In this document: piece after piece, positions 1 through 28,965 of the stretch
Numbering within the stretch: position 1 is the stretch's first letter
Layout of the letters: each line of letters starts with the position of its first letter
NCBI GenBank assembly: GCA_041659025.1
Contig: JBAZZA010000006.1
Coordinates: 9,514 to 73,513, forward strand
Origin: Bacteroidales bacterium
GTDB lineage: Bacteria; Bacteroidota; Bacteroidia; Bacteroidales; UBA932
Direction: 5' to 3'
DNA: 64,000 nucleotides
Notes under the pieces: generated by a model
What the model was told of the DNA's origin: nothing
Seen by the model: only the letters and a program-made list of their open reading frames with translations
Databases searched by the model: none
Made by a program: the position numbers and the translations under genes

Positions 1-736
1 TTGCGTTTAGAAGCATTTTCAAATCATTTTTATGAAAAGAACAAAAAGGTATATTAAGTTGAAACGTTGATTTAATACCAACTTTACGGGATAAGTTAAA
101 AATTTCAACTATATGTTTGGCTGACTCTTCAAATGATAAAACAAAGCTATCATCAACTTTTTCATATTCAACAGCTGGTGAAGCAACGTTAAAAGCAATA
201 TGTTTTAATTTAAGAGTGTCATTAATAAATGCAATTATTTCTGAACTATATTGAAAAGACAATTTAGATAAAACGATATTGGCGTTAGGTTTATATCCCA
301 TTTGTGTGAGATTTTCAAAACCTAGTAATACATCTTTAAATACATCTTTTTTCTTTGTATTTTGGTAATAATTTTCCTCAGAAAAACCATGAAAGGAGAA
401 TGTAATATTTTTCAAACCTAAATCTATACAATTTTTTGCGAAATTCATATCCGAAAAAACTCTACCGTTTGTAACAAGAGAAATTTTCATATCATGTGAA
501 CCTAGCAATTTTATTAATCGAAATAAGTTTGAATATAAAGTAGGTTCACCTCCAATTAAAATAATATTTTTAATTCCAATTTCCTTGAAAATTTTTATTT
601 TATTATTTATAAAAGATATATTAATTTCGGTTCCTTTTGCATTATTAACACTGTCTTTAACATAGCACCAAATGCAATTGTTATTGCAGCTATCTATTAA
701 ATCAATCCATAATGTCTTTGGTAAAGCATATTTCAT
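1..736 (-). CDS. radical SAM enzyme (possibly SPASM/maturase type); the C-terminal end runs off the window
   Basis: Absent from the ORF track because it has no stop in the window. My translation of the minus strand from the ATG at 736 reads MKYALPKTLWIDLIDSCNNNCIWCYVKDSVNNAKGTEINISFINNKIKIFKEIGIKNIILIGGEPTLY...VTNGRV... It has the CxxxCxxC cluster motif and a GGEP SAM motif, and the frame stays open to base 1. Confidence 0.75.
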   Translation of the reverse strand, partial: MKYALPKTLWIDLIDSCNNNCIWCYVKDSVNNAKGTEINISFINNKIKIFKEIGIKNIILIGGEPTLYSNLFRLIKLLGSHDMKISLVTNGRVFSDMNFAKNCIDLGLKNITFSFHGFSEENYYQNTKKKDVFKDVLLGFENLTQMGYKPNANIVLSKLSFQYSSEIIAFINDTLKLKHIAFNVASPAVEYEKVDDSFVLSFEESAKHIVEIFNLSRKVGIKSTFQLNIPFCSFHKNDLKMLLNA

Positions 737-779
737 TTGTCATCATTATTTTAATTATAATCGCTATTTTTTTTATAAC

Positions 780-915
780 TGCTAACGTTTCGGGGCTTTG
801 CGTTCGGGCGGGAAATCGAAGCACAAATGTTCAGTTTTGCAAAAAAAATCAATTGAAAAACAGCCGTTGGATTTTGCACTTCAGCCCGCCTGACGCAAAA
901 CCCTTGTTATGTGCA
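780..915 (-). repeat. attC-like imperfect hairpin site E1 (candidate cassette recombination site)
   Basis: The minus strand reads TGCACATAAC-AA-GGGTTTTGCG-TCA-GGCGGG...variable about 70 nt...CCCGCC-CGAA-CGCAAAGCCCC-GAAAC-GTTAGCA. It has paired arms with bulges, AAC/GTT terminal cores and a length of about 136 bp. It starts 4 nt after the HEPN stop codon. Confidence 0.5.
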
Positions 916-919
916 GATT

Positions 920-1510
920 TTATTCCATTAATCTAAACCAATCTTTTACCGTCAATTCAAGTCTTACAATTTCGTCTTCTGCAAGAGGACAGCAATGTGC
1001 TATTGGTCCTCTTAATTGATTTAAATTTGTCATTATCTTTGAAAACGCTCTTTGTCCTCGTTTAAATAGATTTTCAAATGCTTCCCAATTTTTTGTAACT
1101 ATTTGACCTAACTCACCAAATGTTGTATAATCTATTTTTTCTAGTGAACGGATTGTAAATCCTGAATCTTCTTCACGTTGAATGTTTTTATCTACATTTT
1201 TCTTTACTTCTTCATCTATTTTGTCAACCCACCAGTTCTCGCCATATTTTTCTTTCATTAAAAGCATAACCTGCCTTCTAATTGATTTTTCAAGACAGTA
1301 AAAAACCTCGTAATGTTTAGACATTACTTTCGCCTCATTTCTAAATTCAGCTTCAAATTGCAAGTAAAAGTCCTTTTCCTTCGTTTGTGCTTTTTCTTGA
1401 CGTCCTAAATCAGAACCTATTTCAATCTCTACATTGTCAAGTCGATTTTCTGTTAGGCTATTTGCCAAGCAAAAAAGCTTTACTTTAGAAATTATATCGT
1501 CATTAGTCAT
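920..1510 (-). CDS. Swt1-like HEPN domain protein (predicted RNase, toxin/effector candidate)
   Basis: A 196 aa ORF. The C-terminal region reads ...YGENWWVDKI...NWEAFENLF...LNQLRGPIAHCCPLAEDEI, with an R-x4-H HEPN motif encoded at 995-1012. Its start overlaps the upstream gene's stop (ATGACTAA). Confidence 0.7.
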   Translation of the reverse strand: MTNDDIISKVKLFCLANSLTENRLDNVEIEIGSDLGRQEKAQTKEKDFYLQFEAEFRNEAKVMSKHYEVFYCLEKSIRRQVMLLMKEKYGENWWVDKIDEEVKKNVDKNIQREEDSGFTIRSLEKIDYTTFGELGQIVTKNWEAFENLFKRGQRAFSKIMTNLNQLRGPIAHCCPLAEDEIVRLELTVKDWFRLME

Positions 1511-2132
1511 TTAATAAATTTTCCTTTAAAGATTTGAAAATTGCGTTAAAGACTGCAGGGTCGTCTGTTTTAGGTAAAACTAAATTAATGGTATAACTTA
1601 AACCCAAGTTGATTTTCTTGATTGTTTTCCCTGTTTCTATAGGAGTTTCCTTTTCCTCTTTGATTTCTGGTTGCTTAACAATGTCAATTTTGTCTTCCTT
1701 TGAATTTTCGAAATCAGCTAATTCTTTTGCAGCCCAAAAAGTACCTGCGATTGCTTTAACCGTACTATTATCGTGTGCTGAGCCTGTTATTTCGGACACC
1801 AATTTTGTTAATTCAGTCCTTGATAGGTCTTGGGCATATTCATTTCTCTCATATATTTCTGAGTAACCAATTTTTATGGCTTTTGCCATTGTTTTGCTTC
1901 GATAGCTTGGATTTCTATAGTCCTTGTAAATCTGTGTAGGAGTTCCGTCACTATTTAAAAAATTACATTTTTTCGCCCAAGAAATGAACATTCTTTGGTT
2001 GCCACCTGGAAATCCAAGTTTAGTTCCTAAGAAGTCATTATTGAAATTTTCAGGAACAGAAGCATCACAGATTTTGGTTAAAATCTTTGTGAGTGTCCCA
2101 GGTGTCATTAAGTAAGGTAAATTTGATGCCAT
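1503..2132 (-). CDS. DUF5343-like protein (family recalled from memory); N-terminal globular domain, E/K-rich linker and a short conserved C-terminal segment
   Basis: A 209 aa ORF reading MASNLPYLMTPGTLTKILTKI...GFPGGNQR...SDGTPTQIYKDY..., then a linker ENSKEDKIDIVKQPEIKEEKETPIE, then the tail INLVLPKTDDPAVFNAIFKSLKENLL. It overlaps the HEPN gene by 8 nt, which suggests translational coupling. Confidence 0.65.
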   Translation of the reverse strand: MASNLPYLMTPGTLTKILTKICDASVPENFNNDFLGTKLGFPGGNQRMFISWAKKCNFLNSDGTPTQIYKDYRNPSYRSKTMAKAIKIGYSEIYERNEYAQDLSRTELTKLVSEITGSAHDNSTVKAIAGTFWAAKELADFENSKEDKIDIVKQPEIKEEKETPIETGKTIKKINLGLSYTINLVLPKTDDPAVFNAIFKSLKENLLND

Positions 2133-2148
2133 AATGTTTGTTTAAATT

Positions 2149-2208
2149 TGCACATAACGGTTCGGCGATATAGCCCGTTTTAATGGGCGGTGACGCCTGT
2201 TATGGGTG
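2149..2208 (-). repeat. attC-like imperfect hairpin site E2 (candidate cassette recombination site)
   Basis: The minus strand reads CACCCATAAC-A-GGCG-TCACC-GCCC-ATTAAAAC-GGGC-TATAT-CGCC-GAACC-GTTATGTGCA, about 60 bp. It shares its architecture and the GAAMC-GTTA end with E1. It ends 16 nt upstream of the DUF5343-like ATG. Confidence 0.5.
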
Positions 2209-2403
2209 CGGTTGCTTTCATAATGTTATTCTCGTCTATTATCTCTTTTCCGGTTGGCTACAACATGATATTTCCTCTCCAATATTGACCTTCTCCCTCT
2301 TGCTCCCCTTCTATTTCGCTGTTATTCTATCCCTTATTTTCCATTAGCACCTTCTGCAAACAATTTAGTAATTGTATCTTAAACATCTAATTCCTTCGCA
2401 ACT

Positions 2404-2479
2404 CACCCATAACTTGTTTATATATTTAACTTTATTACATATACTCACCAATTTCAATTGATAATATTCAACGTTATTG
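2404..2479 (-). repeat. possible degenerate third attC-like site E3
   Basis: GTTATGGGTG (minus strand, 2413 to 2404) is the exact reverse complement of the E2 5' core CACCCATAAC. A GTTA/TAAC pair at 2473-2476 and 2410-2413 could close a weak AT-rich hairpin. The fold is poor. Confidence 0.25.
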
Positions 2480-2810
2480 AATAATACATGTGAATAAAAT
2501 CCCTTATTTCCCCAGCGCATTTCTTATGAAAAGAAGTACTAGCATGGAATACAATGTGGTAAAGTGAAAAAATACACCCGAACTGCAACGTAGTAAATTT
2601 AAATAATAGAATATCTATTTCCAAATAAATTTTCTATATCCAGATAATCTTTAGCTAATTACAGAATTTCTCTGGCCTATTTAAGTCAAATTTGCTCATT
2701 TCACCCATTCTCCAGACAGACAAGAAACCTTTACACATATTATCAAACCATGGCAAAAATTGTGAAATACAACAGAAATATTCAAGAACTGGGAGATATT
2801 TGTTATAAAG

Positions 2811-2950
2811 GTTTGTGCACCCACTCATTGAGCGTAGCATAAAAAATCAAGAGCGGAAATTGGCAGCTATTCTGCTGAAGGATTATCTCAATTACACCCT
2901 TTAATTTTTACCAAGTAAGCGCATCAGGAGTTATTGAGCAGCACCAATAC
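2811..2950. repeat. degenerate copy (B1) of the long-palindrome family
   Basis: The left arm GTTTGTGCACCCACTCATTGAGCGTAGCATAAAAAATCAAGAGCGGAAA closely matches the 3274-3321 arm. The right arm is decayed. Confidence 0.4.
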
Positions 2951-3080
2951 ACAGAAGTGAATCCGTGAAAACGTATCAGAACTCGGCGCAAATAGTGTGA
3001 CAAAATACAGTATATGGTGCATGATTAGTATATGCTTGCAGAATTGTATTCTCTTTTCTACTGTCATTTTGCATTAAAAG

Positions 3081-3118
3081 ATTGATTGTGTAATAGTCTG
3101 AACGGGCATTGCATAAAC
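3081..3118. repeat. partial copy of the outer arm of the long-palindrome family
   Basis: ATTGATTGTGTAATAGTCTGAACGGGCATTGCATAAAC resembles TTGATTGTGTAATAGCCAGAGGGACATTGCAATAAG at 3236-3271. Confidence 0.4.
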
Positions 3119-3235
3119 TATTTGTCGCATATTACACTATAGGAAATTATGCGACTTAATAGTAATAAGGTGTGGAGTTTGAAGATGCTTAAGGCTTATA
3201 AAATATATTCTCATATTCATTTTGCTTCTTAATTT

Positions 3236-3427
3236 TTGATTGTGTAATAGCCAGAGGGACATTGCAATAAGCGTTTGGGCACCCACTCATTGAGCGCAGC
3301 GTAAAAAATCAAGAGTGGAAACCTGCAGCCATCTGTACTGGCAAACTTGGTTTCCACCTTTGATTTTTAGCGTAGCGAAAGCACAGTGGGTAAACGCGAT
3401 GCACGGTCCCGAAGGCAATTACACAGC
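3236..3427. repeat. long imperfect palindrome B2 (about 190 bp; inner arms 3280-3323 and 3349-3392, loop 3324-3348)
   Basis: The inner arms CACCCACTCATTGAGCGCAGCGTAAAAAATCAAGAGTGGAAACC and GGTTTCCACCTTTGATTTTTAGCGTAGCGAAAGCACAGTGGGTA are largely complementary. The outer arms (ATTGTGTAATAGCC... and ...GGCAATTACACAGCC) extend the pairing. Confidence 0.6.
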
Positions 3428-3540
3428 CATATAATAAATAGAAGCAAAATGAAAAAGAAAACAAAGAGAATAAATCCGAAACACGCATCCGAAAACCCAC
3501 ACCTTATCCAAAAATTGTCGCATAATTAGCTCTGTATAAT

Positions 3541-3590
3541 TCGCGAAGTGGGTAAACGCGATGCACAGTCCCGAAAGCAATAACACAACC
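3541..3590. repeat. partial copy (right outer arm) of the long-palindrome family
   Basis: TCGCGAAGTGGGTAAACGCGATGCACAGTCCCGAAAGCAATAACACAACC resembles GCACAGTGGGTAAACGCGATGCACGGTCCCGAAGGCAATTACACAGCC at 3381-3427. Confidence 0.5.
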
Positions 3591-3698
3591 AATAAAAAAA
3601 AGAGATTCAAAATAAAGAAGTAGATAATACGGCTGTAAGCATCTTTAATAATGCACCATACCAAGAGTGACGCACAATTTGCACCCAGTCTGCTACTG

Positions 3699-4529
3699 CT
3701 ACGATTCACACAGGAACTTGCTGCTCACAACTCCCTGAAAGCTCTTCGACACCGGAATATCAGGCGAATCCGCCACATCAATCTCCAGCATGAGCCCCTC
3801 CTTGGTACGCCTAATAACCTTAACCCTGTTAAAATTCACAAGAAACGACCTATGACAACGAGCAACAGGCGTCCTCCTCAACAAAGATTCAAGGTTCTTA
3901 AGACTGTTCCGGAGCAGATACGTCTTAGACTTACCATTAGTAACATAATGAATAACAACATAATTATCAGCCGATTCAATATAAAGCAAATCCTCCAGCA
4001 AAATAGACAACATAAGAGCACCCTTCTCATCCTTAAAAGTAATACTCTTAAGCGGATTCAACTCAGGTTCGTCACCAGACTCAATCTTCTGCAACCTTCT
4101 AGTACTCTCCTGCCACCCAAAATAGAACCACAAAGCAAGATAGGGGAGAAGAAGGACAAGAGCAGTATTCTTAGAAGACTCCTTGAAAACCTCCATAGTA
4201 TCCCGGCTGGGGTTAAGCACAAGAGAGTAGATAGTATAGAAGAGCGACATGAACAAAATCTCCGCAAGCACCCAGATAACATAAGTACGATAAGAGATAT
4301 CATGCCTGCGACTATAGAAGTACATAATGATACGGCTGATGATAACAACCAGCACCCCGGTGAGAATAATAAGGCTGGAGTAGACAAAGAACATGAAGTC
4401 AGAAACCTTGTACCAGCTCGACGAGCTGAAGGGTTTGTAGATATTGATGAAGACCAGCGCAAATACAGCAGTCAGGGCAACCAGCTTTATAATATTCCGT
4501 TTTTCGTTTATGTATTTTGGTATGTTCAT
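3699..4529 (-). CDS. membrane-anchored LytTR-domain DNA-binding protein
   Basis: Four or more N-terminal hydrophobic helices. The C-terminal LytTR-like region reads LLYIESADNYVVIHYVTNGKSKTYLLRNSLKNLESLL...CHRSFLVNFNRV. I placed the start at the ATG at 4529 (MNIPKY...) rather than at the ORF-track maximum. Confidence 0.75.
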   Translation of the reverse strand: MNIPKYINEKRNIIKLVALTAVFALVFINIYKPFSSSSWYKVSDFMFFVYSSLIILTGVLVVIISRIIMYFYSRRHDISYRTYVIWVLAEILFMSLFYTIYSLVLNPSRDTMEVFKESSKNTALVLLLPYLALWFYFGWQESTRRLQKIESGDEPELNPLKSITFKDEKGALMLSILLEDLLYIESADNYVVIHYVTNGKSKTYLLRNSLKNLESLLRRTPVARCHRSFLVNFNRVKVIRRTKEGLMLEIDVADSPDIPVSKSFQGVVSSKFLCES

Positions 4530-4679
4530 ATCTCCTTCGCAAATGTAACAAATTAATTTGGCCACGCATATTAAATTTTCACCCCATATTCCGCAATTTC
4601 GCCCCAAAGCCATACCCTTTAAACCATTTATTTGCCAAGCGCAGAGCGGAATATTTCTTTTGTGAAAAATTACAGAGAT

Positions 4680-5765
4680 ATGAAGCTGCACAAATTTATT
4701 TTTAAAGAAGTTTTGGGAAAAGGAGCGATAGTGGACGACATGAAAAAATGCAAGACTCCGGTTTTCCTAAAGAAGACCGACGATGAATTTCAGGAAAACC
4801 AGGCATTCGAATATCTTATAGTAGAGCCCGAAAATATGCTCAGAGAGCCCAACGGAAAGGCATCGTCGGTTATACTCATGTTTCACGGACTAAACGAGAG
4901 GACATGGGACAAATACTACTCATGGGCAGAGTACATAGCCAACCACACAAGAAAACCGGTTCTGCTTTTTCCAACAGCGTTCCACATAAACAGGGCCCCG
5001 GCAGAATGGAGCAACCCAAGAGCAATGCAACCGTTCGTGGCCGACCAGCAGAACACAGAGCCAAAGCCGTCGCACCTCACATTCCTGAACTACGCACTCA
5101 GCAACAGGATAAAGGCCGACCCATACAGATTCTACCTTGCCGGCAGGGAGACAATCAACAACGTCTGCCAGCTTATTGGAAAAATCAAAAAAGGGACACA
5201 CAAGCTTATAGACAGCAAAGCAACAATAGACATATTTGCATATTCGATTGGGGCCCTAATGTCGCAGGTGATACTCTTTGCAAACCCCAACAACTACTTT
5301 ACAAAGAGCAAGTTGTTCATGTTTTGCGGAGGCTCGCTTTTCGACCAGATGGACGGAGAGTCAAAGATGATAATGGACAGGGAGTCGTTCTATTCGCTGC
5401 TCGATTATTACAAAAACAAGTTTCTTTTCTTCAAAAGCGAGAGCAGGTTAAAGGGCGACGTTCTTGAGATGGCATTTGTGAGCCATATAGACTACGCAAT
5501 AAACAGAGAGGAACGAGAGAGCTTCTATGAGGAGATAAGCCATAGGATACAGGCAATATCGCTAAAGAAAGACAAGGTGATACCAACAACAGGAATCAAG
5601 TCCGCTCTTGGCAAAATACATATGAACTGCCTTGAGGAACTTGATTTTCCATTTGATTATTCTCATGAGAACCCGTTTCCTCCCGAAGGACCAAAAGTCG
5701 ACCCTGCCGACAGGAAGTTCTGGTTTGAGAAGGTATTCTCTAAAGCGTCAGCCTTTCTGAGCTAA
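4680..5765 (+). CDS. alpha/beta-hydrolase-fold protein of unknown function
   Basis: It has an HG oxyanion motif (MFHGLNE), a nucleophile-elbow-like AYSIGA and a C-terminal SHENPF. The start was chosen at MKLHKF (4680). The specific family is not recognised with certainty. Confidence 0.6.
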
Positions 5766-6578
5766 CTCTTTTATAAGCGATTTAGGATCAATGTTGTTAC
5801 GCTCGATGTCCTTGAAGTAGTTTACTGTGCCAACCTTGAGCTCAACTGTAGAGGCATCGTCGCAAACAATAATTCCCTTTCTGTGAAGCTGAAGCACGCT
5901 TACAGTATACATGTGGTTCACGCTACCCTCGATAGCTTCGTAAAGGGCCCTCGACTTATGGTGACCGTTAACCAGAACCATTACCTCTTCGGCATCCATA
6001 ATTGTTCCCACACCAACAGTAAGAGCAGTCTTAGGAACCTGATGGATGTCGTTGTTGAAAAACCTGGAGTTGGCTATTATGGTGTCGGTAGTCAGGCTCT
6101 TGATCCTTGTCCTTGAAGTTAAGGAAGAACCCGGTTCGTTAAAAGCAATGTGTCCGTCGGGGCCAATTCCACCCATAAACAGGTGAACACCACCGTAGGA
6201 GGCCATCTTCTTCTCGTAATTCTCACATTCAAGCAACAAATCCTTTGCGTTGCCGTCAAGTATGTTGGCGTTTTCTCTTCTTATGTCTATATGCTGGAAA
6301 AAGTTGTTCCACATAAAGGTAAAGTACGATTGCGGGTGCTCTTTGGGGATGCCGATATACTCATCCATGTTGAATGTGACAACATTCTTGAATGATACCA
6401 GTCCCTCTCTGTAATATTTAACAAGCTCCTTGTATGTTCCGTTTGGAGTAGATCCTGTAGGAAGTCCAAGCACGAAGGGCTTGTATTCCGTTGGAGCAAA
6501 TTCCCTGATTCTTTTTACAATGTAGGCCGCGGCCCATTGTGAAACCTCTTCGTAAGAGTTTTGTATGATTACTCGCAT
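5748..6578 (-). CDS. nagB: glucosamine-6-phosphate deaminase
   Basis: [17 protein letters not shown]...LGLPTGSTP...FNMDEY...[16 protein letters not shown] are typical NagB motifs. Confidence 0.9.
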
Positions 6579-28718: not shown

Positions 28719-28965
28719 ATTGTGTGTTACATAATTCTGGAAGAGGGGAAGAGAGTTTGAGAAGCTTTCAAGAAAGATTTGGGTACCCACTTAGCAAATG
28801 GAGCGTTATAAAAATTGGAAGCGGAAACCTGAGCCTATTTGCATTAGCATACTCTTGGTTTCCGCCTCAATTTTTTAGCGTAGTGAGCGCAAAGTGGGTA
28901 AATCTGGTGAACGCTTCAAAAACTCCCTTCCCCTTTTCAGGGAAAGTTACACAATGCACGTCGCC
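28719..28965. repeat. long imperfect palindrome B4, same family as 3236-3427 (inner arms 28794-28829 and 28857-28890)
   Basis: The inner arms TACCCACTTAGCAAATGGAGCGTTATAAAAATTGGAAGCGGAAACC and GGTTTCCGCCTCAATTTTTTAGCGTAGTGAGCGCAAAGTGGGTA pair. The outer arms run from ATTGTGTGTTAC... to ...GTTACACAATGCACGTCGCC, a degenerate inverted copy of the 21-nt motif that ends 6 nt from the tlpA-like stop. Confidence 0.6.

Follow-up and report, generated by a model that had tools for sequence, protein, structure and literature searches.

Integrons, one of the major routes by which genes are captured, serve as the model of structure-specific site-specific recombination on single strands. The attC sites of their cassettes carry an inverse core (RYYYAAC) and a core (GTTRRRY), fold into an imperfect hairpin in which the L boxes pair around a variable centre, and measure about 57 to 141 bp; the classical geometry reportedly has symmetric 5-nt spacers (Stokes et al. 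1997). Xer recombination on the folded single-stranded attP of the CTX phage is a precedent for a folded-strand substrate. The additional domain of IntI, by which integrons are defined, is held necessary for activity (Messier & Roy 2001, as cited in PMC9668308), the intI gene is known to be co-oriented with the cassettes in some integrons (PMC4889954), and Bacteroidetes are regarded as nearly devoid of integrons (PMC9024848).

The window, meaning the whole 64-kb stretch of DNA analysed here, came from an uncultured Bacteroidales. Its positions 1-2413 are very probably the proximal end of an integron-type cassette array, the cassettes of which would be moved as bottom strands by an IntI/Xer-like enzyme. 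The array is integron-like and locally integrase-less, and probably a little-described variant. An earlier note on this DNA had proposed an integron-like array, and this interpretation was supported, with agreement in every test that was run. "Integron-like" is the fitting term and does not imply membership of the classical IntI-defined integron family, since the recombinases neighbouring related arrays carry no IntI-specific domain and the sites are unlike the classical attC architecture.

In common with sedentary chromosomal integrons (SCIs) and CALINs, such as the Vibrio cholerae superintegron with its VCRs, the cassettes are tandem, co-oriented, mostly promoterless and small, and end in AAC...GTT hairpins. 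Hybrid sites of the kind produced by crossover at G↓TT and low-GC accessory DNA are likewise shared, and site families are conserved within arrays, the repeats of two related arrays (L026 and L006) resembling VCRs. Defence cargo including Shedu was reported from Vibrio SCIs (bioRxiv 10.1101/2024.07.02.601686), as found here, and the integrase-less locus matches the definition of a CALIN (PMC9024848). The differences are the host (Bacteroidales, FCB group), an asymmetric R-L spacer with the 3' side always longer, an R-box of 14-15 bp with a conserved mismatch or wobble at position 11, the lack of any assigned classical extrahelical G/T, and a recombinase beside related arrays which has no IntI additional domain.

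Array layout and cassette content

Features of the array are collected in Table 1. The HEPN/DUF5343-like pair and the radical SAM gene, which the earlier note had described as co-oriented, gave Pfam matches and all lie on the minus strand; the 16- and 43-nt leaders and the stop codon 4 nt before site E1 were also correctly given. The genes of PDC-M34A and PDC-M34B overlap in the same orientation and form the adjacent pair required by PADLOC. No minus-strand ORF of at least 40 aa lies wholly inside cassette A. The region is AT-rich as had been claimed, with GC of 29-32% in positions 1-2000 vs ~42% elsewhere. The stretch separating the array start from the LytTR gene occupies the position of the recombinase gene in related loci.

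Table 1. Coordinates of the cassette array and adjoining features in the window
Feature	Position	Strand	Description
Cassette array, proximal end (very probable)	1-2413	(-)	
Putative attI-like junction	2404..2480	(-)	AT-rich, hairpin-less ..TTAAATATATAAACAA, then G2413↓TT ATGGGTG, the start of cassette A
Cassette A	2158..2412	(-)	255 nt, ORF-less; from TT at 2412-2411 to G at 2158; includes site E2; bounded by chained cores
Site E2, short attC-type	2149..2215	(-)	CACCCATAAC-A-GGCG..CGCC-GAACC-G↓TTATGTGCA
Cassette B	786..2157	(-)	1372 nt, two genes (PDC-M34 candidate defence pair) and its own site E1
DUF5343 gene (PADLOC PDC-M34A)	1503..2132	(-)	Pfam PF17278, E 1.6e-48; PADLOC, E 1.6e-50
Swt1-like HEPN gene, HEPN_Swt1 (PADLOC PDC-M34B)	920..1510	(-)	Pfam PF18731, E 6e-14; PADLOC, E 1.2e-35
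Site E1, attC-type, of cassette B	780..920	(-)	ATCTGCACATAAC-A(A)-GGGTTTTGCG..CGCAAAGCCC(C)-GAAAC-G↓TTAGCA
Cassette C start	1..785	(-)	TTAGCA.., 43-nt leader, radical SAM gene; gene leaves the window
Radical SAM gene	2-736 within the window, ATG at 736	(-)	Pfam Radical_SAM, E 2e-21
Non-coding, repeat-rich DNA	2414..3698	.	1.28 kb, array start to LytTR gene; no ORF >96 aa; palindromic repeats

A Logan contig from an independent assembly (L001) matched positions 1-3598 with 0 mismatches, so the array is not an assembly artefact. The same contig carries the array 2 kb further to the left, with a third hairpin (E0), a Shedu cassette and a fourth site, and it shows the complete radical SAM gene (348 aa) together with a gene for a 60-aa Cys-rich peptide. 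Both further units left of base 1 and the next core there (..GCTAAC) had been predicted, and the core was present as ccGCTAAC at position 4117 of L001. The exact DNA pattern of the fourth site found no match in JGI metagenomes. An Rfam scan of positions 1-6000 matched no family, and Rfam itself contains no attC family. Exact-protein look-ups for DUF5343 and LytTR returned one sample each, giving no strain series for the species.

Site anatomy and the chained cores

The minus-strand cores were TGCACATAAC (915-906), GTTATGTGCA (2158-2149), CACCCATAAC (2208-2199), GTTATGGGTG (2413-2404) and GTTAGCAG (786-779), and the core coordinates and complementarities given previously held when rechecked on the sequence. 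GTTATGGGTG, at the attI-like junction, is the exact reverse complement of the 5' core of E2. This chain rule applies at four successive junctions, from the attI-like junction to E2, from E2 to E1, and then in L001 from E1 to E0 and from E0 to the fourth site. One GTA/TAC variant is present on both chained partners, therefore the second and third bases of the triplet lie inside the cassette.

Folding confirmed that E2 and E1 both form imperfect hairpins. E2 (~60 nt) and E1 (~136 nt) agree with attC in hairpin form and size; E2 has spacers of 0-1 nt (5') and 4-5 nt (3'), a weak L stem of 4 bp and an inner stem. The hairpins alone were not significantly better than shuffled sequence, with z-scores of only -0.6 to -2.3. 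Folding of the bottom strands had been suggested as a check, and the bottom (+) strand was indeed slightly more stable (-12.1 vs -8.8 kcal/mol for E2, -25.6 vs -24.1 kcal/mol for E1), whereas the classical extrahelical bases sought by the same check could not be assigned.

In a set of 56 curated sites, AAC and GTT (rarely TAC/GTA) were the boundaries in every case, including E2, E1 and E0. AAC was followed by A in 54/56 and GTT was preceded by C in 54/56, and the four core-flanking bases fit the R/Y pattern of RYYYAAC / GTTRRRY loosely. The spans from AAC to GTT were 46-192 nt (median 125), so that some exceed classical sites. The 3' spacer was longer than the 5' spacer in all 56, by 1-4 nt (5' 0-4 nt, 3' 1-8 nt). 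Thus the sites have neither the symmetric spacers nor the conserved extrahelical base of attC, and neither conserved single-base bulges nor a classical extrahelical G/T could be assigned in the curated sites. The asymmetry between the strands instead arises at positions with A·C in the top and G·T in the bottom strand.

Recurrence of the 10-mers at random positions had been named as a sign of chance. Across the 64 kb the exact AAC/GTT-anchored 10-mer pairs no more than 3 kb apart were indeed near chance (6 observed vs 4.1 expected), while the first 2.5 kb held 2 pairs vs 0.2 expected (P ~0.02). For a 7-nt match at positions preset by the hairpin ends, P was ~3-6e-5 each. Taken alone, the 10-mers reach only weak significance, and the matter is decided by the hairpin context together with the comparative data.

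Related arrays and cassette portability

The array of L003 comprises at least 24 cassettes in one orientation and 23 recognisable sites, and the chain rule holds there at 22/22 junctions. The R-boxes of all 22 cassettes show perfect complementarity for 9-10 nt and reach 14-15 nt, with a C/A mismatch at position 11, and the bottom strand was more stable in 19 of the cassettes (mean -35.2 vs -31.9 kcal/mol). The hybrid-site rule was also observed at the first-cassette junctions of nine further loci. In L005 one cassette has 3 mismatches between the 5' core and its start, and the distal sites are degenerate, therefore the chain rule is not universal across junctions.

Sites were detected by a rule-based procedure combining hairpin and chain, which gave chains of 21 in L003, 8 in L026, 5 in L004 and 4 in L006, against a background of chains ≤3 in the 64-kb window and ~1 Mb of control loci (L002, L007-L094; both strands). 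A detector using the chain only (7-mers, ≤1 mismatch, no hairpin requirement) was too noisy, with 13 chance "links" in the window, and a first permissive hairpin scan was dropped for its many false sites.

The PDC-M34 cassette occurs with unchanged boundaries in L003, an unrelated array, and as the first cassette in L005, which bears out the proposal that 786-2157 is a 1.37-kb two-gene cassette. It is also present in L008, with its own hairpin. Its neighbours differ among the window, L003/L004, L005 and L008/L009, and protein identity is 81-97%. Identity to L003, L005 and L008 steps from 20-30% up to 65-95% at window position 2158, and identity to L003 and L005 drops again after 786, so homology of the cassette starts and stops at G↓TT, where breakpoints in related loci had been expected. 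For L008 the drop comes already at the coding end (~920), and a different attC is found there. The outer stems of E1 are common to the orthologous cassettes of L003, L004 and L005 and also occur on a different cassette (L003 3673-3797). By these alignments, the PDC-M34 cassette is a portable unit between arrays with its homology limits at G↓TT.

Recombinases beside related arrays

No tyrosine recombinase was identified among the 10 likeliest ORFs of the window by Pfam, and tblastn with the recombinase of L008 found no pseudogene or remnant in the 64 kb, including 2414-3698. The remark that no integrase was in view thus extends to the whole window, and the 61 kb next to the array on its attI side contain no recombinase. 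The locus is without the adjacent IntI, with its IntI-specific additional domain, of a complete integron; counting its two sites inside the window and a further pair no more than 2 kb to the left, it corresponds to a CALIN (at least two attC, no integrase nearby) if these sites count as attC.

An IntI/Xer-like recombinase gene in the same orientation precedes the array by 48-354 nt in at least 12 other loci (Bacteroidota and one Ignavibacteriota). This spacing to the first-cassette junction was seen in L008/L009, L016, L023, L035, L047, L096, L097, L122 and L042, and L026 and L025 carry arrays too. The junction at the array start of the window resembles those of the same loci (L008 for the first pair) and may be an attI. 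Recombinase profile scans of genomes and metagenomes gave mostly 30-50% relatives among the matches listed, and frequencies are lower bounds. Among these matches, homologues with the N-terminal domain had a cassette downstream on the same strand in at least 8/24, on the other strand in 0/24, and upstream in none. The detector thus sees arrays at one third of them; the others may have no arrays or divergent sites.

The catalytic R-K-H-R-H-Y residues are conserved in the recombinase, and the ~40-aa IntI-specific domain is absent, with 37 aa standing opposite 77 aa of VchIntIA. Matches to TIGR02249 were always split and reached 167-251 bits vs a cutoff of 265, and NF011946 was below its cutoff as well. 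Most of the Bacteroidota recombinases carry an extra ~55-aa N-terminal beta-alpha domain. In structure prediction, with P0137 as the first sequence, the closest structures were VchIntIA, the top structural match, and archaeal Xer, with Xer chains slightly higher by sequence. Its alignment with XerA/XerC-like structures of the Xer family (XerC/D, archaeal XerA) spans the full length without the IntI insertion, and the recombinase is about equally close to IntI and Xer in sequence and fold. It differs from Xer in its linkage to cassette arrays instead of chromosome-dimer resolution and in the extra N-terminal domain. In the "inverted integrase" integrons of Treponema denticola and others, intI is co-oriented with the cassettes like the recombinase in related loci, where attI would lie just downstream of the stop codon; those integrons have a bona fide IntI with the additional domain, whereas the enzymes here fall below both profile cutoffs and are ~40 aa shorter there.

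Judged by synteny alone, the enzyme would be linked to the arrays. Within an incomplete coverage of the literature, no description was found of insertion-less IntI-like enzymes tied to attC-type arrays in Bacteroidota. Four cultured carriers of the system were identified, Winogradskyella ursingii HL4150, Aquiflexum sp. TKW24L, Flavobacteriaceae bacterium S0862 and Alkalitalea saponilacus DSM 24412.

Alternative explanations

The locus could be the remnant (CALIN) of a classical integron, built by a canonical IntI which was lost or lies elsewhere, with the insertion-less recombinases as bystanders or Xer paralogues. The AAC..GTT cores with AAC-A/C-GTT flanks, the hairpin form, the size range and the chained hybrids are as in attC, the window has no recombinase, CALINs are common (PMC9024848), and Bacteroidota are among the integron-bearing phyla (PMC8618304). 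This origin is nevertheless unlikely: the co-oriented gene directly upstream of the first cassette is of the insertion-less type in at least 12 independent loci, no array here adjoined an insertion-carrying recombinase, the spacer geometry is unlike the symmetric 5-nt spacers of classical attC, and IntegronFinder surveys of Bacteroidetes recovered only In0, plus one complete integron in Salinibacter (PMC9024848).

Much less room is left for the other two readings. Tandem small transposons or MITEs with terminal inverted repeats would account for the 10-15-nt inverted complementarity flanking each cassette, yet neither target-site duplications nor a transposase were found, the inverted termini differ among units where one family would share them, the units abut with no target DNA between, and an inner hairpin with invariant AAC/GTT is a signature of site-specific recombination rather than of transposition; this reading is very improbable. 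That the hairpins are terminators or REP-like repeats, and the 10-mers chance matches in AT-rich DNA, has a negligible probability. The near-chance number of 10-mer pairs over 64 kb and the modest z-scores fit it, but the matches lie exactly at hairpin ends in four consecutive junctions and no T-run follows the stem, and the predicted core found outside the window, the G↓TT breakpoints of cassette homology and the 22/22 junctions of L003 effectively refute it.

Proposed mechanism and significance

In the integron-type model, each cassette would hold a promoter-proximal ORF set and, behind it, an imperfect attC-type hairpin of its own, and it would be inserted and excised by site-specific recombination crossing at G↓TT. 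With the crossover at this position, every site in the array is expected to be a hybrid: the last bases of a site (TTNNNNNNN) would come from the following cassette and be paired with the 5' core of that cassette. Recombination most likely acts on the bottom strand in its folded form, where the two A·C mismatches of the top strand would become G·T wobbles. The enzyme is likely to be of the IntI/Xer-like tyrosine recombinase class, without the IntI-specific insertion. The locus is CALIN-like and has no recombinase of its own, therefore turnover, if the array is currently active, would need an enzyme encoded elsewhere. The predicted cargo is mainly anti-phage defence, namely PDC-M34 (a candidate system) and Shedu, and a radical-SAM/Cys-rich-peptide pair is also present.

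A broader proposal, for and against which we see the chances as evenly balanced, is that the Bacteroidota and Ignavibacteriota (FCB group) hold a distinct integron-like branch, having an IntI/Xer-related recombinase without the additional domain, usually with the N-terminal beta-alpha domain, and a site architecture of its own (asymmetric spacer, 14-15-bp R-box, bottom-strand G·T wobbles). The array in the window would then be a recombinase-less outpost with defence genes. Surveys defined by the IntI domain would miss such an enzyme by construction, and IntI-based detection pipelines would under-report cassette arrays. The four cultured carrier strains make the question directly testable.

If a domain-less enzyme does build these arrays, hairpin-site recombination would have evolved or persisted with a different recognition solution, and the taxonomic and mechanistic scope of integrons would widen. 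The finding also carries the view of cassette arrays as stores of small defence systems over from Vibrio to environmental Bacteroidota.

Array at the left end of the window

The cassettes, lettered from the array start, were A (no ORF), B (DUF5343 and Swt1-like HEPN genes), C (radical SAM) and D (Shedu). The sequence statements of the earlier note on the hairpin sites E2 and E1 and on the array-start core were all correct on re-reading of the minus strand, and the AT-richness it had judged by eye was borne out, with GC of 29-32% in the first 2 kb versus about 42% in the housekeeping DNA rightwards. An independent Logan contig, L001, matched window 1-3598 with 0 mismatches, so an assembly artefact was ruled out, and it reached 1969 nt left of window base 1. 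Further units had been predicted there, and the end of cassette C, a third site, the Shedu cassette and a fourth site were found. GCTAAC of the third site was the predicted next core, pairing with the E1 3' core GTTAGC, and the unusual 3' core GTAAGCC of the third site paired with GGCTTAC of the fourth. Both partners carried the T-to-A variant, so bases two and three of the GTT triplet would move as part of the cassette, which is what crossover at G|TT predicts.

Sites and genes of the array in the window and in its leftward extension, contig L001
Feature	Position	Strand	Sequence or remark
Array-start core	2413-2404	minus	GTTATGGGTG
E2	2208-2149	minus	CACCCATAAC-A-GGCG..CGCC-GAACC-GTTATGTGCA
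DUF5343 gene	1503-2132	minus	
Swt1-like HEPN gene	920-1510	minus	
E1	915-780	minus	TGCACATAAC-AA-GGGTTTTGCG..CGCAAAGCCCC-GAAAC-GTTAGCA
Radical SAM gene	ATG at 736, extends past window edge	minus	
Complete radical SAM gene	L001, cassette C		348 aa
60-aa peptide gene	L001 3893-4075 (296-478 nt left of window base 1), cassette C		C-terminal CxCxCx... repeat
Third site	L001		ccGCTAAC-AT-GGCATAAGCG..CGTCTATGCC-TGAACG-GTAAGCC
Shedu (SduA) gene	L001, cassette D		PADLOC E 4e-23
Fourth site (start only)	L001		cGGCTTAC-AA-..

E2 and E1 both folded as hairpins, slightly more stable on the plus (bottom) strand, with energies 0.6-2.3 sd from shuffled sequence. Chance 10-mer complementarity in AT-rich DNA had been named as an alternative. 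Exact 10-mer pairs anchored on AAC/GTT and at most 3 kb apart were indeed near chance across the 64-kb window (6 observed vs 4.1 expected), with 2 vs 0.2 expected in the first 2.5 kb (P ~0.02), but their placement exactly at hairpin ends was non-random, 7-nt matches at positions fixed by those ends having P ~3-6e-5 each. The window pattern alone was weakly above chance, its non-randomness coming from this placement.

Related arrays and portability of cassette B

Homologues of the DUF5343 protein were numerous in Bacteroidota, and four of their contexts proved informative. The locus L003, which covers 20 kb of a 4.1-Mb JGI contig, encodes a cargo protein with a T9SS Por_Secre_tail, pointing to a Bacteroidota host; its co-oriented cassettes, mostly small ORFs, numbered at least 24, and 23 sites resembling those of the window were recognisable. 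When cassettes were reconstructed as circles for R-box pairing (n=22), the R-box was perfectly complementary over 9-10 nt in all 22, and at position 11 every circle had a mismatch between C of the 5' core and A of the cassette start. On the bottom strand this mismatch is a G·T wobble; beyond it pairing resumed, for R-box totals of 14-15 nt. The bottom strand was more stable in 19/22 circles (mean -35.2 vs -31.9 kcal/mol). The same mismatch type occurred in window cassettes B (position 11), C (position 7) and D (position 8). Together with AAC-A / C-GTT, this mismatch gives a built-in strand asymmetry.

Cassette B, identified as PADLOC PDC-M34A/B, was flanked by unrelated cassettes in L003 (protein identity 87%), and headed the array in L005 (97%) and, behind a recombinase gene, that in L008/L009 (81%). 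In a four-way alignment, breakpoints lay where the integron model had placed them: identity to the window stepped up at GTTATGTGCA (window 2158), from 20-30% to 65-95%, and that with L003 and L005 collapsed after GTTAGC (window 786). The outer hairpin stems of E1 were kept in L003 and L005 around a variable centre; L008 had a different attC. A combined hairpin and chain detector, run on both strands of the 64-kb window and about 1 Mb of control loci, gave chains of at most 3 in either, and chains of 21 in L003, 8 in L026, 5 in L004 and 4 in L006. This chaining and portability is the behaviour of integron cassettes. Terminators, REP elements or a transposon were also considered as readings of the hairpins, which fail to account for the comparative chain and breakpoint data.

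In L005 (1547-1675 and 2531-4530) the attC of this closest cassette B relative had a 40-nt central deletion, its 5' core differed from the cassette start at 3 positions, and distal sites were degenerate; the locus may be a decaying array or a product of recombination between different sites. In L006 (1-9555), a metagenome contig, a PDC-M34 array with 4 near-identical sites abutted an opposite-strand mobile island encoding a CTnDOT-type integrase, VapE-like primase, reverse transcriptase and HisKin-conflict protein, which may have inserted into or beside the array.

Across a comparison set of 56 sites, classical attC was resembled in the AAC..GTT cores, hairpin form, variable centre and hybrid structure, with AAC-A in 54/56 and C-GTT in 54/56. 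Unlike classical attC, whose spacing was reportedly described by Stokes and co-workers in 1997 as symmetric (5 nt), all 56 sites had the longer spacer on the 3' side, the excess being mostly 3-4 nt; their R-box was far longer and contained the position-11 wobble, some reached about 190 nt, and classical extrahelical bases were assignable in none of those compared.

Cargo

Cassette C encoded a radical SAM/SPASM-like enzyme, with weak viperin and peptide-maturase matches, and a Cys-rich peptide. The 60-aa peptide ORF overlapped the radical SAM gene at its end and had no family match; its own C-terminus reads CRCHCECNCRCDCKCDC, and it looks like a RiPP-type precursor. In cassette A, a hydrophobic 54-aa ORF lay on the opposite strand (2183-2347, plus), starting in the E2 loop, and is probably spurious; small reversed ORFs do occur in integron cassettes. 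L005 also carried an Abi_alpha/PDC-S47 cassette, and most L003 cassettes matched no known family. Vibrio chromosomal integrons carry defence systems including Shedu (bioRxiv 10.1101/2024.07.02.601686).

Array start and flank

Upstream of the attI-like junction, G2413|TT, AT-rich DNA without a hairpin was followed by 1.28 kb of non-coding repeat-rich sequence, and further right by genes for a LytTR regulator and DUF6051, by nagB, and by core genes as far as rpoBC and tuf. The absence of an integrase from view was upheld: no tyrosine recombinase was found among 10 window ORFs scanned with Pfam, nor a match within 64 kb by tblastn with the array-linked recombinase, which makes the locus integrase-less (CALIN-like). 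The source is an uncultured Bacteroidales MAG, kin of Bacteroidetes bacterium GWF2_40_14 and Rikenellaceae MAGs. In four contigs of a GWF2_40_14-like relative (L011-L014) synteny was conserved up to LytTR, and all terminated 120-320 nt past it, which would fit repeat-rich or variable DNA at that point.

A palindromic element spanning some 210 nt (3229-3440), containing nested inverted arms (38 and 29 nt) and unmatched in Rfam, occupied the space where related loci have the recombinase gene, and the Logan assembly broke inside it. Partial copies lay nearby (2805-2870, 3547-3599), and a 73%-identical one 25 kb off (28778-28902). L011 12994-13075 (minus; same position in L012-L014) was orthologous to DNA just past LytTR (window ~3600); after LytTR these relatives had only about 25 nt in common with the element, and their sequence then passed into a group II intron domain V/VI (RF00029, 36.4 bits, E 1.4e-5) with a CGC triad as in class C introns, where all four contigs ended.

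Recombinase beside related arrays

The tyrosine recombinase of L008/L009, 375 aa long and with Pfam matches to SAM_4 and Phage_integrase, ended 97 nt before AAATGCAAAC|GTTGTGCGCA, the start of the first cassette, which complements that cassette's own 5' core. Other loci were alike, with a co-oriented recombinase and a junction 48-354 nt past its stop (11/12 match to the first site's core): L016 (Bacteroidales MAG), L023 (Aquiflexum sp. TKW24L), L035 (Winogradskyella ursingii HL4150), L042 (Alkalitalea saponilacus DSM 24412), L047, L096, L097 and L122. Arrays were also present in L025 (Flavobacteriaceae S0862) and L026 (Ignavibacteriota, 8 VCR-like sites). In a blind count among the matches listed, restricted to homologues that carry the N-terminal domain and have 1 kb or more of sequence downstream (n=24), a same-strand downstream cassette was seen in at least 8/24, on the other strand in 0/24, and upstream in 0.

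The enzyme, annotated only as XerD or 'tyrosine-type recombinase', retained the catalytic R, K, H-x-x-R, H and Y residues. It fell below the cutoff of integron-integrase models, scoring 167-251 bits against TIGR02249 (cutoff 265), always in two pieces; it aligned continuously with XerA and XerC-like structures, and 37 of its residues stood opposite 77 of VchIntIA. The best structural matches of the AlphaFold model (pLDDT 80) were VchIntIA (E 1e-14) and archaeal Xer (E 1e-13); the model showed no extra helix at the IntI additional-domain position, and an N-terminal beta-beta-alpha-beta-beta-alpha domain was confidently modelled. This insertion-less class is the somewhat favoured candidate for the cognate enzyme of the array. 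Because all the integron surveys consulted (PMC9668308, PMC4889954 among them) define IntI by its additional domain, such enzymes would not be counted.

Relation to known integrons

Bacteroidota are listed among phyla with integrons (PMC8618304; PMC9668308); in Bacteroidetes, IntegronFinder 2.0 had earlier detected only In0 elements, plus one complete integron in Salinibacter (PMC9024848). In an incomplete coverage of the literature, no account was found of such arrays tied to an insertion-less IntI-like enzyme. The integron-like reading of the earlier note stands, as the chained cores continue in L001 and recur in L003 and cassette homology ends at G|TT, and the window feature is very likely a site-specific-recombination cassette array of integron type. 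From the site, comparative, recombinase and literature evidence it is therefore regarded as a real integron-like array, which probably differs from the IntI-defined family rather than belonging to it.
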